A program made the position numbers and the translations under genes. Shown here piece after piece: positions 13,329-29,453 of a stretch of DNA of 32,000 nucleotides (positions are counted from its first letter, which is position 1; every line of letters begins with the position of its first letter). The DNA lies in assembly GCA_024277355.1 (NCBI GenBank), contig JAJRVL010000004.1:420001-452000 (forward strand), written 5' to 3'. This DNA is from an archaeon. GTDB lineage: Archaea; Iainarchaeota; Iainarchaeia; Iainarchaeales; 1-14-0-10-31-34. The notes under the pieces are model-generated. The model had not been told where the DNA came from, made no database searches, and saw only the letters and a program-made list of their open reading frames with translations.

Positions 13329-13370
13329 AAAAAAAGCTGAGAGAGGGATTCGAACCCTCGATCTTCCGCT

Positions 13371-13473
13371 AACCGTGCTGACCTTGTTTTAATAAAAAAT
13401 TATGTGCAAATGCCTTTTTTCTTTTTGGGCAACTTGCACTTTTTCTTTTTCGGAAAAAAGAAAAAGGGCAGCG
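13371..13473 (-). other. tRNA-Cys intron (103 nt) with bulge-helix-bulge geometry
   Basis: The outer helix is intron GCUG(CC) with (GG-U)CAGC. The 5' bulge is A36-G37|C. The central 4-nt helix is C32-U33-G34-C35 against intron ACGG (3 pairs plus one C.A mismatch). The 3' bulge is UU|A38, followed by the anticodon stem. Spacing is therefore exactly 3-4-3. Confidence 0.7.
13411..13471. repeat. 61-bp repeat element, copy 1 (inside the tRNA-Cys intron)
   Basis: The sequence tgccttttttctttttgggcaacttgcactttttctttttcggaaaaaagaaaaagggcag is identical at 61/61 positions to 15624..15684 in the same orientation. The flanks are unrelated. Confidence 0.95.
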
Positions 13474-13535
13474 CTGCAGGCGGATGCATATCCTCTCTGC
13501 CACCTCAGCTTAATAGAAGAAAAGGCTTGAAAAAG

Positions 13536-19903: not shown

Positions 19904-19993
19904 TTTCAGTCAATAATAACAACATAGAACAAGTATAAAAAGATATTTTTTCTTAAATATTAAAGCACTAATTTTAAATTAAAAGTGAGAAAA

Positions 19994-22720
19994 ATGGCAG
20001 ATGAATCAATAGAAATTTTCAGAAAAAAACTAAAAAAATTAAAGAAATTTAAAGGAAGAGGAACAGAATTAATTAGTTTATATATTCCTGAAAATGCAGA
20101 CAGAAGTTCAGTGATGAATCAAATCACAGAAGAAATGAGCCAGAGTGCAAACATTAAAAGTCCTCAGACAAGAAAAAATGTTCAGGGAGCACTAAGAAAA
20201 CTAAATACTTTTTTAAAAAACATTAATTTTAAGATTCCAAAAAACGGATTAGTTTTATTTTGCGGAAATGTAAGTGAAACAGAAGGAAGAAATGACATTA
20301 AATTAATTCCATTAAATCCAATTAAAGAATTAAAAACAAAATTATACTGGTGTGATTCTTCTTTTCATTTAACTCCATTAGAAGAAATGCAGAAAACAAA
20401 AGAAGTTTATGCTTTAATTGTATTAGATAAAAGAGAAGCAACAGTTGCATTGCTTAAAGGAAAAAGCTATGAAATTATAGGGCATTTTACTTCAAATGTT
20501 GCAGGAAAAACAAGAGCAGGAGGGCAATGCCTTTCTCCTGAAACACTAATTCAGTTAAATGACGGTTTAATTATTCCAATAAAAAACTCACATAACCCTT
20601 TACAAGTAAAAAGCATGGATTTTGAAAACTATTCATTCACTGATTCAAACATAAAAGATAAATGGAAAACAAAAAAAAGTGTTTATAAAATAATAACAAA
20701 AAACCCAAGAACAGAAATTGTTTGTTCAAAAGACCATTTATTTTTTACTGCAGGAAAAGAAATTAAAGAAAAACCTGCTGAAAAACTAAAAATTGGAGAT
20801 CAATTATTAATGCCTGAAAAAGTTGAAATTAAAGGCAAACCCCAAAAACTTGAATCATTTGACTGCTTTAATTCATATAACATTACAGACAAAGGAAAAA
20901 CTAATTTAATTAATGCAAGAAAAAAAACCGGTTTTTCTCAAAAAGAATTTGGAAAAAAAATAGGGATAACCCAAACAGGAGTTTCAGTTATTGAATTAGG
21001 AAAAAGTAATATAAGAAAAAGTCTGCTTGAAAAATTATGCTTTGAATTGAATATTGATTTTGAAAATTTTATTAAAATACATGCAAAACCTAATTCAGAT
21101 TTGTTTATGCCAAAAAAATTAACAAAAGAACTGGCAAAAATAATGGGTTATTTTGCTGGAGACGGAAGTTTTGAAAAAGAAAGAATAAGTTTTTCAGAGC
21201 AAAGCAAAGAGCTTGCAGAATACTATAAAAGCAAGACATCAAAACTTTTTAAAGCAAATAATGCAGTAAAATTCAGAGAAAACAAAGGTTATTATCAAAT
21301 AAGAATTTATGGAAAACCTATTGTTAAGTTTATTGAAAAAAATTTTCCTGAAATAAAAAAAGCAATAAACAGCGAAATACCAATAAAAATATTAAAATCA
21401 GAAAACGAAGTTTTAGCTTCTTTTATTAAAGGGTTTTATGATGCAGAAGGTTATGCAACAACAAAAAGAGGGATTGGATTAGGAATAAACAATAAAATAA
21501 TGGCTGAACAGATTAGACTTTCACTTTTAAGATTTGGAATTATTTCTTCTTTGCATGAATATGATAACAGAAGAAATCCTTATTCAGATAATCCAAGATT
21601 TACTGTTGACATTTCAGACAATAAATCACTAAAATTGTTTTCAAAGTTAATTGGGTTTAGTTTAAAAAGAAAAAAAGAAAAAATGGAAAAACTAATTAAA
21701 AACAGAAAACACATTAGAAGCAATGTAAGACAGATATTTACTTCAGGAAAAAAAATCAGAAAAATAATTGAAGAACATGACTGCAACTTAGAGTTGTTTC
21801 CTAAAGTAAACAGTTTTTTCAGGAATGAAAGACAAATGAGCAAAAAAGTGTTTGCTGAGTCAATTCTTGATTGCATTAAAGATAAAAAATTAAAAGGAAA
21901 ACTCAAAAAAATAATGAATATTCCTTTAATTCCAGTAAAAATAAATAAAATAATTAAATCAAATAAAAAAATAAGTTTGGTTGATATTAGTGTGTCAAAC
22001 CAGAATTTTATTGCAAATGGATTAATAGTTCACAATAGCGCACATAGATTTGAACGATTAAGAGAAGAAGCAACCCAGGAATTTTTTAAAAGAACAAGCG
22101 AAAAAATTAACGGAATTTTTTCTGAACACAAAGAAAATTTAAGGGGAGTAATTATTGGCGGTCCTGGAATAACAAAAAATAAGTTTATGGAAAAAGATGT
22201 ATTAGATTACAGGTTAAAAGAAAAAATTATAGGAACATTAGATACATCTTATACTGATGAATCAGGAATAAGAGAAATGATTCAGAAAGCAGAAGACTTA
22301 CTAAAAAATACTGCTTTAATGAAAGAAAGAATTTTATTAACTAAATTTCTGGAAGAAATAGTTAAAGATGGAGCAGTAACTTACGGAGAAAAAGAAGTAA
22401 TGGAATCCTTGGAAATAGGAAAAGCAGAAACTGTTTTATTATCTGAAGGCATTGAATGGACTGCAATAAAATTCCAGTGTACTTCCTGCAATAATATTGA
22501 AGAAACCGTAATTAAAGACGGAAAAAAACCTAAATTAAAATGCAGTAAATGCAGTTCAACTAAAATTGAAGAATTAGAGGATTTAGAGTTTGCTGAATTT
22601 TTAGAAGAAAAAGCAAAAGTTACTGGCGCTAAAATTGAAGTTATTTCAGTTGAAACAATTGAAGGCGAACAATTTCTTAAAGGATTTGGCGGAATCGGCG
22701 CTTTCTTAAGATATAAATAA
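19994..22720 (+). CDS. prf1: Peptide chain release factor aRF1, interrupted by an intein
   Basis: The exteins carry NIKS (SANIKSPQTRKN), YxCxxxF (LYWCDSSFHL) and GGQ (KTRAGGQ|intein|SAHRFERLREE). Extein length is 178 + 227 = 405 aa, normal for aRF1. I chose the ATG at 19994 over the GTG at 19985. Confidence 0.9.
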   Translation: MADESIEIFRKKLKKLKKFKGRGTELISLYIPENADRSSVMNQITEEMSQSANIKSPQTRKNVQGALRKLNTFLKNINFKIPKNGLVLFCGNVSETEGRNDIKLIPLNPIKELKTKLYWCDSSFHLTPLEEMQKTKEVYALIVLDKREATVALLKGKSYEIIGHFTSNVAGKTRAGGQCLSPETLIQLNDGLIIPIKNSHNPLQVKSMDFENYSFTDSNIKDKWKTKKSVYKIITKNPRTEIVCSKDHLFFTAGKEIKEKPAEKLKIGDQLLMPEKVEIKGKPQKLESFDCFNSYNITDKGKTNLINARKKTGFSQKEFGKKIGITQTGVSVIELGKSNIRKSLLEKLCFELNIDFENFIKIHAKPNSDLFMPKKLTKELAKIMGYFAGDGSFEKERISFSEQSKELAEYYKSKTSKLFKANNAVKFRENKGYYQIRIYGKPIVKFIEKNFPEIKKAINSEIPIKILKSENEVLASFIKGFYDAEGYATTKRGIGLGINNKIMAEQIRLSLLRFGIISSLHEYDNRRNPYSDNPRFTVDISDNKSLKLFSKLIGFSLKRKKEKMEKLIKNRKHIRSNVRQIFTSGKKIRKIIEEHDCNLELFPKVNSFFRNERQMSKKVFAESILDCIKDKKLKGKLKKIMNIPLIPVKINKIIKSNKKISLVDISVSNQNFIANGLIVHNSAHRFERLREEATQEFFKRTSEKINGIFSEHKENLRGVIIGGPGITKNKFMEKDVLDYRLKEKIIGTLDTSYTDESGIREMIQKAEDLLKNTALMKERILLTKFLEEIVKDGAVTYGEKEVMESLEIGKAETVLLSEGIEWTAIKFQCTSCNNIEETVIKDGKKPKLKCSKCSSTKIEELEDLEFAEFLEEKAKVTGAKIEVISVETIEGEQFLKGFGGIGAFLRYK
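20528..22036 (+). mobile_element. Intein (503 aa) with a LAGLIDADG homing-endonuclease domain and an XRE-like HTH segment
   Basis: It starts with Cys1 (CLSPETLIQLNDG), has a block-B-like SKDHLFF and ends ...NGLIVHN, followed by the +1 Ser. The two LAGLIDADG motifs are LAKIMGYFAGDGSF and ASFIKGFYDAEGY. An HTH_3-like stretch, KKTGFSQKEFGKKIGITQTGVSVIELGKSN, lies between the N-terminal splicing region and the endonuclease. Confidence 0.85.
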
Positions 22721-26612: not shown

Positions 26613-29453
26613 TTACAAGTTTTCTATTGCGTCGATTAATTCTTGTGCTGCTGAACCTGTGTCAGATCCGGTGTATCCTGCAACAACTATGTCTCCTGTG
26701 CTGGTTTTTTCAGCAACATAGTCTCCTGTTTTGGTTAACTTTGATTTCAAAGTTGAACCGTCTGCAAGAGTTACTCCTTCAGCCAATTTGTTGACTTTCC
26801 ATGCACCAACAATTACGTGTGTTGCTGCTGATGGATTTACGTCATCTACTACAAGGTTTCTTGCAGTTAATGGCTGCATATAAGTTGTTGGAGTTACACT
26901 ACAGCTTCCTGTACCGGTTCCTGTTCCGCCACCACAAGTTGCATTATAGTTGACTTTTGTTACAGTGACTCTTGTTCCGCCAGTAGTACTTCCTGTTTCG
27001 CCTTCAGCTACAGTTAAGTCTTCTCCGCCTGAAACAGTTGTAGTTGTTCCTGTTCCTGAGATTAAAACTTCTGCTTGAGGTCTGTTTTCTGGTAAGGTAA
27101 TTTTATATTTGTGGTCGTTTAGTTCAATTTTTGAACCAAAGTCAGTGTATGCTGTTGAAGGATAAGTTGAAGTAGTGCTTTCGCTGACGAATTTTGCTCC
27201 GCCGTTATAGTCTCCTTCTGCAGTATAGGTACTTAATTGAGTGTTTGGTAATGCAATTAAGTTACCTGTTCCTGTGTCAACATAGAAGTTCATGTCGTCA
27301 ACTGAGTCTTCATCCTGGTCAATCTGGAACATTGCAACAAAGTATTCGTTTGAGTTGTAGTTTGCGTCACCTTCCATTAAGGCAGGCAAATACTGGCTGT
27401 GTGGCAAGTAGAATCCATAGTTGTTTATTCCTGCTTGTGTTTGGGTCATTCCACCACTTGTAAAGTTTTGGTCTTCTGTTGTGTCGGTTCCTACAAAGTC
27501 CCATCTTTTACTGTATTGGATGGTTTTTGTTTGTGCATCAAAGAATAACCATAGTCTTGATGTTGAACCGATTTCATCAACCATTACTTCATAGTCGTGT
27601 GTTACTGAACTGGCACCTTCAAAGCTGATTGCTGCATTGTTTCCATAGTTCTGGTCAACATAGTAGAATTCCTGTATTAAGGTTCCACTTGAAGTGTCTT
27701 TTCTGAAAGTGACGTTTCCGTCTGCTGTCAAATAAACACCTGTGTTTGCATCATCAATTCCTGAAACTAAGAACTGCATTCCGTTAATGTCAATTCTTTG
27801 TCCAACGTTAACATCTGTTCCGTTAATTTTTACGTTGTTTCCAGTAAGAGTTGTGCCTGTTGCTGGAGAACTGTTTGCGTCTGTTACAAAAACTAATTCT
27901 CCGTTGATGTAGTTCTGGTCACCAATAAGGTCGTACTTTGTTCCTGAACCGTCTGCTGAAGTGCTTGCAAACAAGTTTGAGTCTGTTGAGTTAAGTTTAT
28001 ACCAGATTGTTTTTCCGTCAATTGTAGTTGTGTCGGTTGATTCGTCTGACATAGACTGGCTCAAGACATACAAAGGAACTGTGTGGTCTGCTTCATAAGT
28101 TGAATCCTTATATTTTAAGTTTCCGTCTTCTAAGCTTACAACAGTTGTTATTTCTGTTTTTGACACTCCGGTAAATTCAGGTAACTGAAGTCCAAGGAAT
28201 TTAAGTGTTCCTAAGTCTTCTGGGAATTTTGCTTCTTGTCCTACAAGTAATGCATCAGTTCCAACAAAGTCATAAGTTGACTTGTTTGTAATGTTTACAT
28301 CTACAAGATAGTTTGTGTCGCTTCCTCCCCATCCTAATTTTACAGTCCAATCATAGTCGTCGTCTGTTTTAGTTGAGTCAAAAGGATATCCTTTGTCATT
28401 CTTTAGTAAGATTCTTGCGTTTCCTACTAAGATTGTTGGTGTATAAACATCTACATCTGATACAGTTGTTTTTAGGATTTCGCTTATGTTAACTAAAGTA
28501 CTTAGAACTGCTTGTCCTGTGTCATCACTGTAAAATACTACGTCTCCTGCTGGAAAGTTTTCGGATTTTACTAAGGTTCCATCTTCTTTGTATAAAGCCA
28601 AAGTGATTTTGTTTGTTGAACCTACTACTCCTCCTCTTCCTACTTCAACATAGTATTTTTCTCCGTCATAACCTTCTAAATCGGTTATTCTGTCTCCTTC
28701 ACTGTATTGTTTTTCGCCTGATGTTTTGATTAATTCAACCTGACTTGAAGTAACGCTTTTGACTAAATAGTCTGATCCAAAGAATGGAATTCTAACGTTA
28801 TCATTTGCGTCATCAGCAAAGTTTGTTGCTACAGTCATTGCATCATATCTTGGAATTCCTGAACCTAAGTTCAAGTTATATTTCAAGTTATTTGTTGCAA
28901 TTTCTGCTACTAATGCTTTGTTTGTTACGTCATCAAACTTTACGTCTGCAGTAAAGTAAAGTCTTTCTTGGATTGCTGTAGTGTATTGTGTTCCATTATA
29001 AGTGTATGATTTTGAACCATTGTAATATAATGATGGAACATTTGATTCACTTACTGACTGGTTGTTGAAGTTTGCTTCCTGTCCAACTGAGTCTGAACTC
29101 ATGTTGTTGAAAAAGGTTTTTCCTCCTGAGACAGTGGTTGTTCCTCCAACACTTAAGTCAACAGTTAAACCATCAACTGATGGAGTTGCTCCTCCGGAAC
29201 AGTCTGCTGTACCTACTGCAACTTGTTTTTCTGTATAGGCTTTTTGTCCTATTGCTACTGCAATATTTCCTGCCCATACTGCGTCGCTTACAGATGCTTT
29301 TTTACCAACAACAACATCTACTTTGACTCCTGAATCAGAAACTAAATCTGATTTGTCCAAAGAGATTGCTGAAGCCATTGGTGCTAAAGCAGAACCAACT
29401 AATGCTGCTCCTGCTGCAATTGCTGCAAGCTTTTTTATGTTAAGATTTCTCAT
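26613..29453 (-). CDS. S-layer protein (Methanococcales-type S_layer_N/S_layer_C architecture)
   Basis: A 946-aa ORF with the signal peptide MRNLNIKKLAAIAAGAALVGSALAPMASA. N-terminal VDVVVGKKASVSDAVWAGNIAVAIG and C-terminal HVIVGAWKVNKLAEG...IVVAGYTGSDT resemble archaeal S-layer end domains. The protein is T/S/G/N/D-rich with about 13 N-x-S/T sequons and has no C-terminal TM or PGF-CTERM. A strong SD is present. The gene is visibly GC-richer than its neighbours. Confidence 0.75.
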   Translation of the reverse strand: MRNLNIKKLAAIAAGAALVGSALAPMASAISLDKSDLVSDSGVKVDVVVGKKASVSDAVWAGNIAVAIGQKAYTEKQVAVGTADCSGGATPSVDGLTVDLSVGGTTTVSGGKTFFNNMSSDSVGQEANFNNQSVSESNVPSLYYNGSKSYTYNGTQYTTAIQERLYFTADVKFDDVTNKALVAEIATNNLKYNLNLGSGIPRYDAMTVATNFADDANDNVRIPFFGSDYLVKSVTSSQVELIKTSGEKQYSEGDRITDLEGYDGEKYYVEVGRGGVVGSTNKITLALYKEDGTLVKSENFPAGDVVFYSDDTGQAVLSTLVNISEILKTTVSDVDVYTPTILVGNARILLKNDKGYPFDSTKTDDDYDWTVKLGWGGSDTNYLVDVNITNKSTYDFVGTDALLVGQEAKFPEDLGTLKFLGLQLPEFTGVSKTEITTVVSLEDGNLKYKDSTYEADHTVPLYVLSQSMSDESTDTTTIDGKTIWYKLNSTDSNLFASTSADGSGTKYDLIGDQNYINGELVFVTDANSSPATGTTLTGNNVKINGTDVNVGQRIDINGMQFLVSGIDDANTGVYLTADGNVTFRKDTSSGTLIQEFYYVDQNYGNNAAISFEGASSVTHDYEVMVDEIGSTSRLWLFFDAQTKTIQYSKRWDFVGTDTTEDQNFTSGGMTQTQAGINNYGFYLPHSQYLPALMEGDANYNSNEYFVAMFQIDQDEDSVDDMNFYVDTGTGNLIALPNTQLSTYTAEGDYNGGAKFVSESTTSTYPSTAYTDFGSKIELNDHKYKITLPENRPQAEVLISGTGTTTTVSGGEDLTVAEGETGSTTGGTRVTVTKVNYNATCGGGTGTGTGSCSVTPTTYMQPLTARNLVVDDVNPSAATHVIVGAWKVNKLAEGVTLADGSTLKSKLTKTGDYVAEKTSTGDIVVAGYTGSDTGSAAQELIDAIENL

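Follow-up and report, generated by a model that had tools for sequence, protein, structure and literature searches.

A predicted homing-endonuclease intein with a Cro/C1-type helix-turn-helix domain in the GGQ loop of the sole aRF1 of an Iainarchaeota-like archaeon

The subject of this report is an intein in the gene encoding archaeal release factor 1 (aRF1) of a small archaeal genome. The DNA analyzed, here called the window, is a stretch of 32,000 nucleotides (nt) from assembly GCA_024277355.1 (contig JAJRVL010000004.1, positions 420,001 to 452,000). It is part of contig 2 of the assembly, which is 1.13 Mb long, 96% complete and has ~27% G+C. By sequence comparison, the host appears to be a small DPANN archaeon, Iainarchaeota-like, with metagenome-assembled genomes (MAGs) of Iainarchaeota/Diapherotrites as its closest named relatives. 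The neighbors of aRF1 encode Dph2, UMP kinase, TruD and a glycosyl-phosphotransferase-like membrane protein.

The aRF1 open reading frame (ORF) encodes 911 amino acids (aa) from a GTG codon and occupies window positions 19985-22720 on the + strand; it encodes 908 aa if the ATG at 19994 is used. The NCBIfam aRF1 model TIGR03676 was shown to match this ORF with 435.7 bits, split at model position 174, and the Pfam domains eRF1_1, eRF1_2 and eRF1_3 were all matched. The frame runs through ...GKTRAGGQ, continues with a Cys at nt 20528 and an insert that ends in ...GLIVHN at nt 22036, and then resumes with SAHRFERLRE. Excision of the insert in silico yields an aRF1 of 405 aa from the ATG (408 aa from the GTG) in which the GGQS junction is restored. 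A preliminary description of this DNA had proposed a 503-aa intein at 20528-22036 directly after the GGQ and a 405-aa aRF1 upon its removal; the boundaries proved exact, and the product was recovered from the ATG at 19994. The features of the locus are as follows.

19933-19969, + strand: conserved stretch in the promoter region of aRF1, within the spacer between aRF1 and the divergent pyrH; near-identical in intein-bearing and intein-free relatives.
19994-20527, + strand: aRF1 N-extein (all of domain 1 plus the beginning of domain 2), with ...GKTRAGGQ at its end; Pfam eRF1_1/eRF1_2, TIGR03676 positions 5-174.
20528-22036, + strand: whole intein, 503 aa, Cys1 to Asn503; Pfam, NCBIfam, family conservation, AlphaFold2 model, Foldseek.
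20528-20857, + strand: N-terminal splicing (HINT) part, aa 1-110, with block A Cys1 and block B S67-K-D-H70; TIGR01445 intein_Nterm (25.3 bits), beta-rich in the model.
20888-21082, + strand: Cro/C1-type helix-turn-helix (HTH) domain, aa 121-185, with Pfam HTH_3 at aa 129-178; HTH_3 score, model, conservation, ratio of nonsynonymous to synonymous substitution rates (dN/dS), clean absence in HTH-less variants.
21125-21655, + strand: double-motif LAGLIDADG endonuclease, aa 200-376; Pfam LAGLIDADG_3, conserved acids, Foldseek, dN/dS.
21134-21166, + strand: LAGLIDADG motif 1 (..GYFAGDG), with D212 invariant.
21419-21454, + strand: LAGLIDADG motif 2 (..GFYDAEGY), with E307 kept in at least 90% of sequences.
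21662-21922, + strand: helical region after the endonuclease, aa 379-465, at the "accessory domain" position of Thermococcales VMA inteins; model helices 380-463.
21923-22036, + strand: C-terminal splicing part, aa 466-503, with block F D486 and block G H502-N503; TIGR01443 intein_Cterm.
22037-22720, + strand: aRF1 C-extein from Ser+1 (SAHRFERLRE...), comprising the remainder of domain 2, the zinc-ribbon-bearing domain 3 and the stop; TIGR03676 positions 174-402, Pfam eRF1_2 and eRF1_3.

The insert has the makeup of a class-1 intein: a nucleophile at position 1, a block B, the block F Asp, the terminal HN, the +1 Ser and a HINT fold. The splicing hallmarks named in the preliminary description (Cys1, a block-B His, the terminal HN and the +1 Ser) were thus all found. 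The Pfam Intein_splicing model was matched with 66 bits (cut-off 35.8). C1, S67, H70, D486, H502 and N503 are invariant among 111 family sequences, S67 being a Ser where the canonical Thr-x-x-His of block B has Thr. The arrangement GGQ/C...HN/S was found in 120 of 120 relatives, with Cys1 and Ser+1 present without exception. That the insert is an in-frame addition to a normal gene is apparent from the uninterrupted aRF1 (AGGQ-S) of G013-G018 and of most of the phylum.

These invariant residues, together with the essential single-copy host gene, argue that the precursor splices itself. Self-splicing would produce the 405-aa aRF1 with its GGQS loop restored and a free 503-aa intein. A single aRF1 was found in the genome; apart from it, the aRF1 model matches just one ORF, of 373 aa, which encodes Pelota (TIGR00111, 239.6 bits). 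Because aRF1 is single-copy in a genome that is 96% complete, translation termination can soundly be expected to depend on protein splicing. The intein interrupts the loop that hydrolyzes peptidyl-tRNA in the only class-I release factor, and every termination event would need prior splicing. The best-known inteins reside in proteins of replication and repair and in ATPases. As judged by the Pfam splicing model, this genome has no intein other than that of aRF1.

An AlphaFold2 model of the intein was built from the 111 family sequences (predicted local distance difference test (pLDDT) 95.2; predicted template modeling (TM) score (pTM) 0.93). The model was found to be composed of HINT-N (aa 1-110), five helices (121-185), the endonuclease (200-376), a helical part (380-463) and HINT-C (466-503). 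Pfam LAGLIDADG_3 was matched with 79.8 bits in two stretches, which bears out the two LAGLIDADG motifs reported earlier, and the endonuclease is modeled as two alpha-beta-beta-alpha-beta-beta-alpha half-domains. Invariant among the 111 sequences are G211 and D212 of motif 1 and D305, A306 and G308 of motif 2, and the catalytic D/E residues are kept in 68 of 74 rows. In Foldseek comparisons, I-DmoI and I-Tsp061I matched the endonuclease at TMt 0.66-0.73. Its dN/dS in six close pairs is 0.07-0.14. The freed intein would cut intein-less aRF1 at the GGQ/S codons, and repair would then copy the intein into the cut allele (homing).

The preliminary description had also placed a Cro/C1-type HTH between the N-terminal splicing region and the LAGLIDADG motifs. 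The quoted string is present, and the similarity withstood profile searches: HTH_3 (cut-off 23 bits) was matched with 37.5 bits inside the intein and with 40.1 bits when the segment was searched alone. In the model, the domain has helices at aa 121-134, 138-145, 149-157, 164-173 and 178-185 (pLDDT 93-96), which predict a five-helix fold like that of the lambda repressor. Q138, S153 and E156 are invariant among the 111 sequences. In the six close pairs, dN/dS was 0.09-0.28 for the HTH and 0.04-0.34 for the intein parts other than the HTH and the endonuclease, no module exceeding 0.34; the values for the HTH therefore indicate that it is maintained by selection. A family profile of the HTH segment was compared with 1.84 billion representatives and returned 92,168 proteins at E<=0.001. 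The top of this list was swamped by proteins with many HTH_3 repeats, and the search gave nothing on the origin of the module or on other inteins. Against solved structures, the HTH segment alone touches HipB. Weak matches to the segment were also seen in four ORFs of 543-601 aa. Three of these (G086, G095 and G112) were rejected: by eye they start with the N-terminus of a translation GTPase (aIF5B/IF2-like), and their similarity around ITQHIG is probably due to chance. The fourth, a 543-aa ORF of G065, has LAGLIDADG_3 and a sub-threshold HTH_3.

One further residue of the HTH bears on whether splicing is conditional. Cys171 (helix 4; window 21038-21040) is invariant in the 111 family members, as the catalytic residues are. 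Together with Cys1 and the placement of the intein in the catalytic loop of an essential factor, it provides circumstantial support for the proposal that the host uses conditional splicing (e.g., redox- or temperature-gated) to throttle termination. Against this, Cys171, as judged from the motif, presumably fills a core position of helix 4 at which HTH_3 domains have a small residue, usually Ala; no sequence feature specific to conditional splicing was found in the intein, and close relatives live without it. Conditional splicing is thus regarded as highly improbable.

The architecture can be compared with that of several known systems. Among Foldseek matches to the whole intein, TliVMA ranked first (7qss; E 7e-23, TM 0.67/0.77), followed by PI-PfuI, PI-TkoII and PhoVMA; PI-SceI came after these, and free LAGLIDADG enzymes (e.g., I-DmoI) ranked lower still. 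The overall TM of TliVMA, PI-PfuI and PI-TkoII was 0.59-0.77. The Thermococcales VMA-b inteins TliVMA and PhoVMA (7qss, 7qsu, 7qst) are likewise archaeal class-1 inteins with a HINT domain, a nested LAGLIDADG endonuclease and a helical domain after the endonuclease. They differ in host site, which is the P-loop of the V-ATPase rather than the aRF1 GGQ loop, and share only 13-15% identity with the aRF1 intein. Accessory domains of inteins have been described as diverse, in some cases HTH-like, and as located between the endonuclease and the C-terminal HINT part (Beyer and Iwai, 2022; PMC8966425). In endonuclease-bearing inteins, they have been shown to alter cleavage-site choice (PMC8966425); the domain of TliVMA is among those described as HTH-like and as affecting where the enzyme cuts. 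In the aRF1 intein that location is taken by the separate helical region at aa 379-465, and the HTH_3 domain lies on the N-side of the endonuclease. In VMA inteins, the HINT part is linked to the endonuclease by an unstructured loop of 28-32 residues (PMC8966425); where these inteins have that loop, the aRF1 intein has a folded Cro/C1 HTH_3 domain of ~65-80 aa.

By sequence, PI-PfuI (1dq3) is the closest of the solved structures (E 3.9e-15), and both it and PI-TkoII (2cw7) share the layout of HINT, LAGLIDADG and an extra domain with the aRF1 intein. Their hosts are ribonucleotide reductase and DNA polymerase. PI-PfuI has no N-side HTH, since only ~18 residues separate its aligned HINT-N from its endonuclease. 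PI-SceI (1vde, 1lws) resembles the aRF1 intein in having an extra DNA-binding region on the N-terminal side, tied to the splicing domain, that lengthens the recognized DNA. In PI-SceI, however, the DNA recognition region is inserted within the HINT fold and is not a Cro/C1 HTH, and the fold match is poor (TM ~0.4, root-mean-square deviation >25). WhiA (3hyi, 8dy9), also among the fold matches, likewise has an HTH joined to a LAGLIDADG scaffold. WhiA, however, is a transcription factor and not an intein, its LAGLIDADG domains lack the catalytic acids, and its HTH is C-terminal. Identity as a WhiA-like regulator was rejected for the aRF1 intein, which retains the catalytic acids and has its HTH on the N-terminal side of the endonuclease. 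The position of its accessory Cro/C1 HTH is not seen in solved intein structures.

The intein belongs to a sizable family. In a large protein database, at least 120 clusters (402 hits at E<=1e-3) contain aRF1 proteins of 860-920 aa with the same architecture, HTH_3 included. They carry public names such as "helix-turn-helix domain-containing protein," "LAGLIDADG family homing endonuclease" and "eRF1/intein/homing endonuclease." A tblastn search of species-representative genomes with the intein as query (E<=1e-3) gave 314 stretches; the best 80 were examined and are full-length, with labels of Woesearchaeota, Nanoarchaeota, Aenigmatarchaeota, Iainarchaeota or Nanohaloarchaea. Identity of the intein is 81-83% to the nearest public relatives (81-82% to the closest named ones, Iainarchaeota/Diapherotrites MAGs) and ~50% to most others. 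Three records labeled "Methanosarcinales" were checked; their exteins are closest to Woesearchaeota records (one 91% identical), and the labels look like artefacts. An aRF1 intein at GGQ/S is therefore common in DPANN assemblies and partly auto-annotated in public data. A full-text literature search found no description of a release-factor intein. The element is of an ordinary kind, a homing-endonuclease intein, at a host site not found in the literature. What is new here is the variant series at this site, the repeated loss of the HTH, the selection and transfer statistics, and the free-standing HTH-LAGLIDADG relatives, all set out below.

Several reduced forms of the intein were found at the same GGQ/S site. 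HTH-less inteins of 426-435 aa, which cleanly lack aa ~113-193, occur in G023, G026, G029, G097, G102, G109 and G174. The catalytic acids have been lost in two of them, G023 (GVG, DAKA) and G097 (GGG). G177 carries a mini-intein of 144 aa (L130, G177:C1:137416-137847) that keeps Cys1, a CSLDH block B, HN and Ser+1. An intein tree was calculated with the HTH columns left out and rooted on RadA, GAN and Top6B inteins. This tree unites the aRF1 inteins in a single clade (98% support). HTH-less forms branch off within the HTH-bearing clade at no fewer than two to three positions, and the G177 mini-intein groups with a full-length intein (96% support). As the HTH-less and mini forms nest inside the HTH-bearing clade, the HTH is most simply read as ancestral to the aRF1 intein lineage and repeatedly lost. 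Full, HTH-less, endonuclease-decayed, mini and empty alleles coexist at one site, which suggests an active homing cycle in DPANN archaea.

The presence and absence of the intein also vary among close relatives. In the phylum, aRF1 is present in 210 of 215 genomes and is split at model position 174 in ~48 of the 210. In the genus of the window, G000, G011 and G012 carry the intein. The uninterrupted AGGQ-S is found in three further species (G013, G014 and G015), which supply the intein-free alleles that the preliminary description had suggested seeking. For each carrier in the genus, the closest relative by extein identity is a non-carrier (84.0, 85.3 and 83.9%). In close pairs, the intein is 79% identical and the extein >90%, so the intein is the faster-evolving part. 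In distant pairs, the order is reversed (intein 48-55%, extein 40-45%), and in one pair the intein is 94% identical and the extein 67%. Within the genus, the synonymous divergence (dS) of the intein is 0.50-0.71, compared to 0.83-0.97 for the extein, and the extein dS was the larger in 96-100% of bootstrap replicates. In the tree, a Woesearchaeota/Nanoarchaeota clade encloses the inteins of Iainarchaeota family f8 (100% support). Patchy presence within the genus, discordant intein and extein identities, lower intein dS and nesting across phyla together point to ongoing horizontal spread rather than purely vertical descent.

The same data bear on the proposal that the intein is a fixed, immobile passenger with an inactive endonuclease, kept since imprecise loss from the GGQ loop would be lethal. 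The intein does sit in a catalytic site of a single-copy gene, its G+C (0.25-0.27) equals that of the host, and within the genus the amino-acid identities of intein and extein are alike (~82%). A passenger of this kind would not be expected to alternate between presence and absence within one genus, to show the identity discordance and cross-phylum nesting described above, or to have a lower dS than its extein. In addition, a dead endonuclease should decay as in G023, G097 and G177, whereas here the acids are conserved and the dN/dS of the endonuclease is ~0.1. This proposal is accordingly judged unlikely.

The role of the HTH was approached through proteins outside inteins. Free-standing ORFs of ~300-340 aa were found in which HTH_3 is followed by LAGLIDADG_3, collinear with aa ~121-390 of the intein (E 5e-18, 4e-19). 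Examples of ~300-337 aa are L124 (G124:C1:713218-714222) and L123 (G008:C60:7853-8749). The family comprises 44 clusters in DPANN-like contigs, most with PF01381 and PF14528. Such proteins (e.g., P0268, 333 aa) are 27-28% identical to the intein and have the same order of HTH and endonuclease; they differ in being encoded by separate genes and in having no HINT splicing parts. A free-standing LAGLIDADG_3 ORF of 340 aa is also present on contig 10 of G000 (67445-67681 (-) region; L005:1438-2457 (-)). It aligns with the late-HTH and endonuclease part of the intein (E 9e-14) and has neither HINT parts nor a Pfam HTH_3 hit. This ORF sits directly downstream of a gene that resembles undecaprenyl-diphosphate synthase by motif. 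Because the free-standing HTH_3-LAGLIDADG_3 proteins are collinear with the intein, the HTH-plus-endonuclease looks like a pre-existing unit. Its probable source is an HTH-LAGLIDADG endonuclease encoded on its own, a kind of protein that these genomes still contain. As an extra DNA-contact module, the HTH would extend or anchor binding of the endonuclease on the conserved aRF1 coding DNA.

The preliminary description had left two roles open for the HTH, DNA recognition in homing and regulation. In its regulatory form, the free intein, made one-to-one with aRF1, would act as an XRE-type transcription factor in the manner of WhiA, regulating itself or other genes. HTH_3 domains are indeed typical of repressors and antitoxins (the weak NCBIfam matches include HipB, PezA and RstR), the HTH is conserved and under purifying selection, and the whole intein has a low dN/dS. 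Several lines of evidence disagree with such a regulator. The catalytic acids of the LAGLIDADG motifs are retained, unlike in WhiA; repeated loss of the HTH has left the intein in place; and collinear, endonuclease-like HTH-LAGLIDADG proteins exist as free-standing genes. XRE regulators generally bind as dimers, whereas a double-motif LAGLIDADG intein would have only one HTH. Upstream of aRF1, ~37 nt at 19933-19969 are near-identical in G000, G011 and G012, which have the intein, and in G013, G014 and G015, which lack it, while their aRF1 proteins are only ~80-85% identical. This stretch is probably the shared pyrH-aRF1 promoter (TATA/BRE) region, and no intein-specific operator was seen upstream of aRF1 in these six species of the genus. 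The collinear free-standing proteins and the lack of an intein-linked operator thus favor DNA targeting, which appears the better supported of the two roles; the regulatory alternative found no support and is given little credence.

Taken together, the element is very probably a class-1 homing-endonuclease intein between the Gln and Ser of the GGQS loop of the sole aRF1, able to splice and to home, with the HTH as an extra DNA-targeting module. Some observations weigh against this reading. An HTH half-site was sought in 60 nt on each side of the insertion site in 87 alleles, and none stood out. In the same alleles, the flanking DNA is conserved only at amino-acid-constrained codon positions, with third positions near random. 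Loss of the HTH occurred on at least two to three occasions, and the endonuclease motifs are intact in most HTH-less forms (G026, G029, G102, G109 and G174); the endonuclease can therefore be kept without an HTH. Whether the HTH is ancestral is somewhat doubtful, given the long basal branch of G174 in the tree. The dS estimates are noisy, and two of the three bootstrap intervals just include zero. Lastly, strong purifying selection over the whole intein would equally fit a role that benefits the host. Such a host-level role beyond homing, whether as a DNA-binding regulator acting through the HTH or through splicing that gates the supply of active aRF1, would explain strong purifying selection on all modules across several DPANN phyla; the chance that it exists is considered small.

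Similar modules may occur at other host sites. In the phylum, the inteins of RadA, GAN and Top6B contain a segment about as long as the HTH and at the same position, in which Pfam HTH matches are sub-threshold (E 0.01-0.07) and profile-profile comparison gave a probability of 59%; the evidence for an HTH in these inteins is suggestive only. Inteins with an N-side HTH (aRF1, RadA, GAN and Top6B) may form an architectural class of their own in DPANN archaea, absent among solved structures, that arose from free-standing HTH-LAGLIDADG endonucleases. In the relatives examined, RadA carries two to three inteins each (ORFs of 1196-1567 aa) and Top6B two (RadA and Top6B genes L025, L026, L028, L029), and GAN/DHH carries one.

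The aRF1 intein remains an ordinary selfish element of a well-understood kind that is abundant in public data. With all stages of the homing cycle at one site in one phylum, it is well suited as a natural system in which to study how inteins are gained, decay and are lost. The Cro/C1 HTH before the endonuclease and its free-standing relatives provide a testable case of the recruitment of an accessory DNA-binding module to homing endonucleases, a case that also bears on meganuclease engineering.

A few minor observations were made along the way. Profile matches to aRF1 were at times flagged as containing one TAA; these flags are an artefact of the terminal stop being read through by the profile alignment. 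In G054 (L122, contig C22), an otherwise intact aRF1 has an in-frame TGA at a position that in relatives encodes one Cys of the domain 3 zinc-ribbon CxxC (...KAE-stop-HSCGNE...), which could be a sequencing error, a pseudogene or recoding. The aRF1 of G150 was likewise flagged with one TGA. Elsewhere in the window, an Rfam tRNA match (43.5 bits) at 13335-13509 (-) is stretched over 175 nt, and ARAGORN makes no call there. The spread of the match indicates an intron of ~100 nt, and the anticodon loop, read by eye as CTGCAGC, suggests tRNA-Cys(GCA). At 26613-29453 (-), a 946-aa ORF has a G+C of 0.36-0.39, compared to ~0.26 around it, and an S-layer N-terminal match (TIGR01564, 42 bits).

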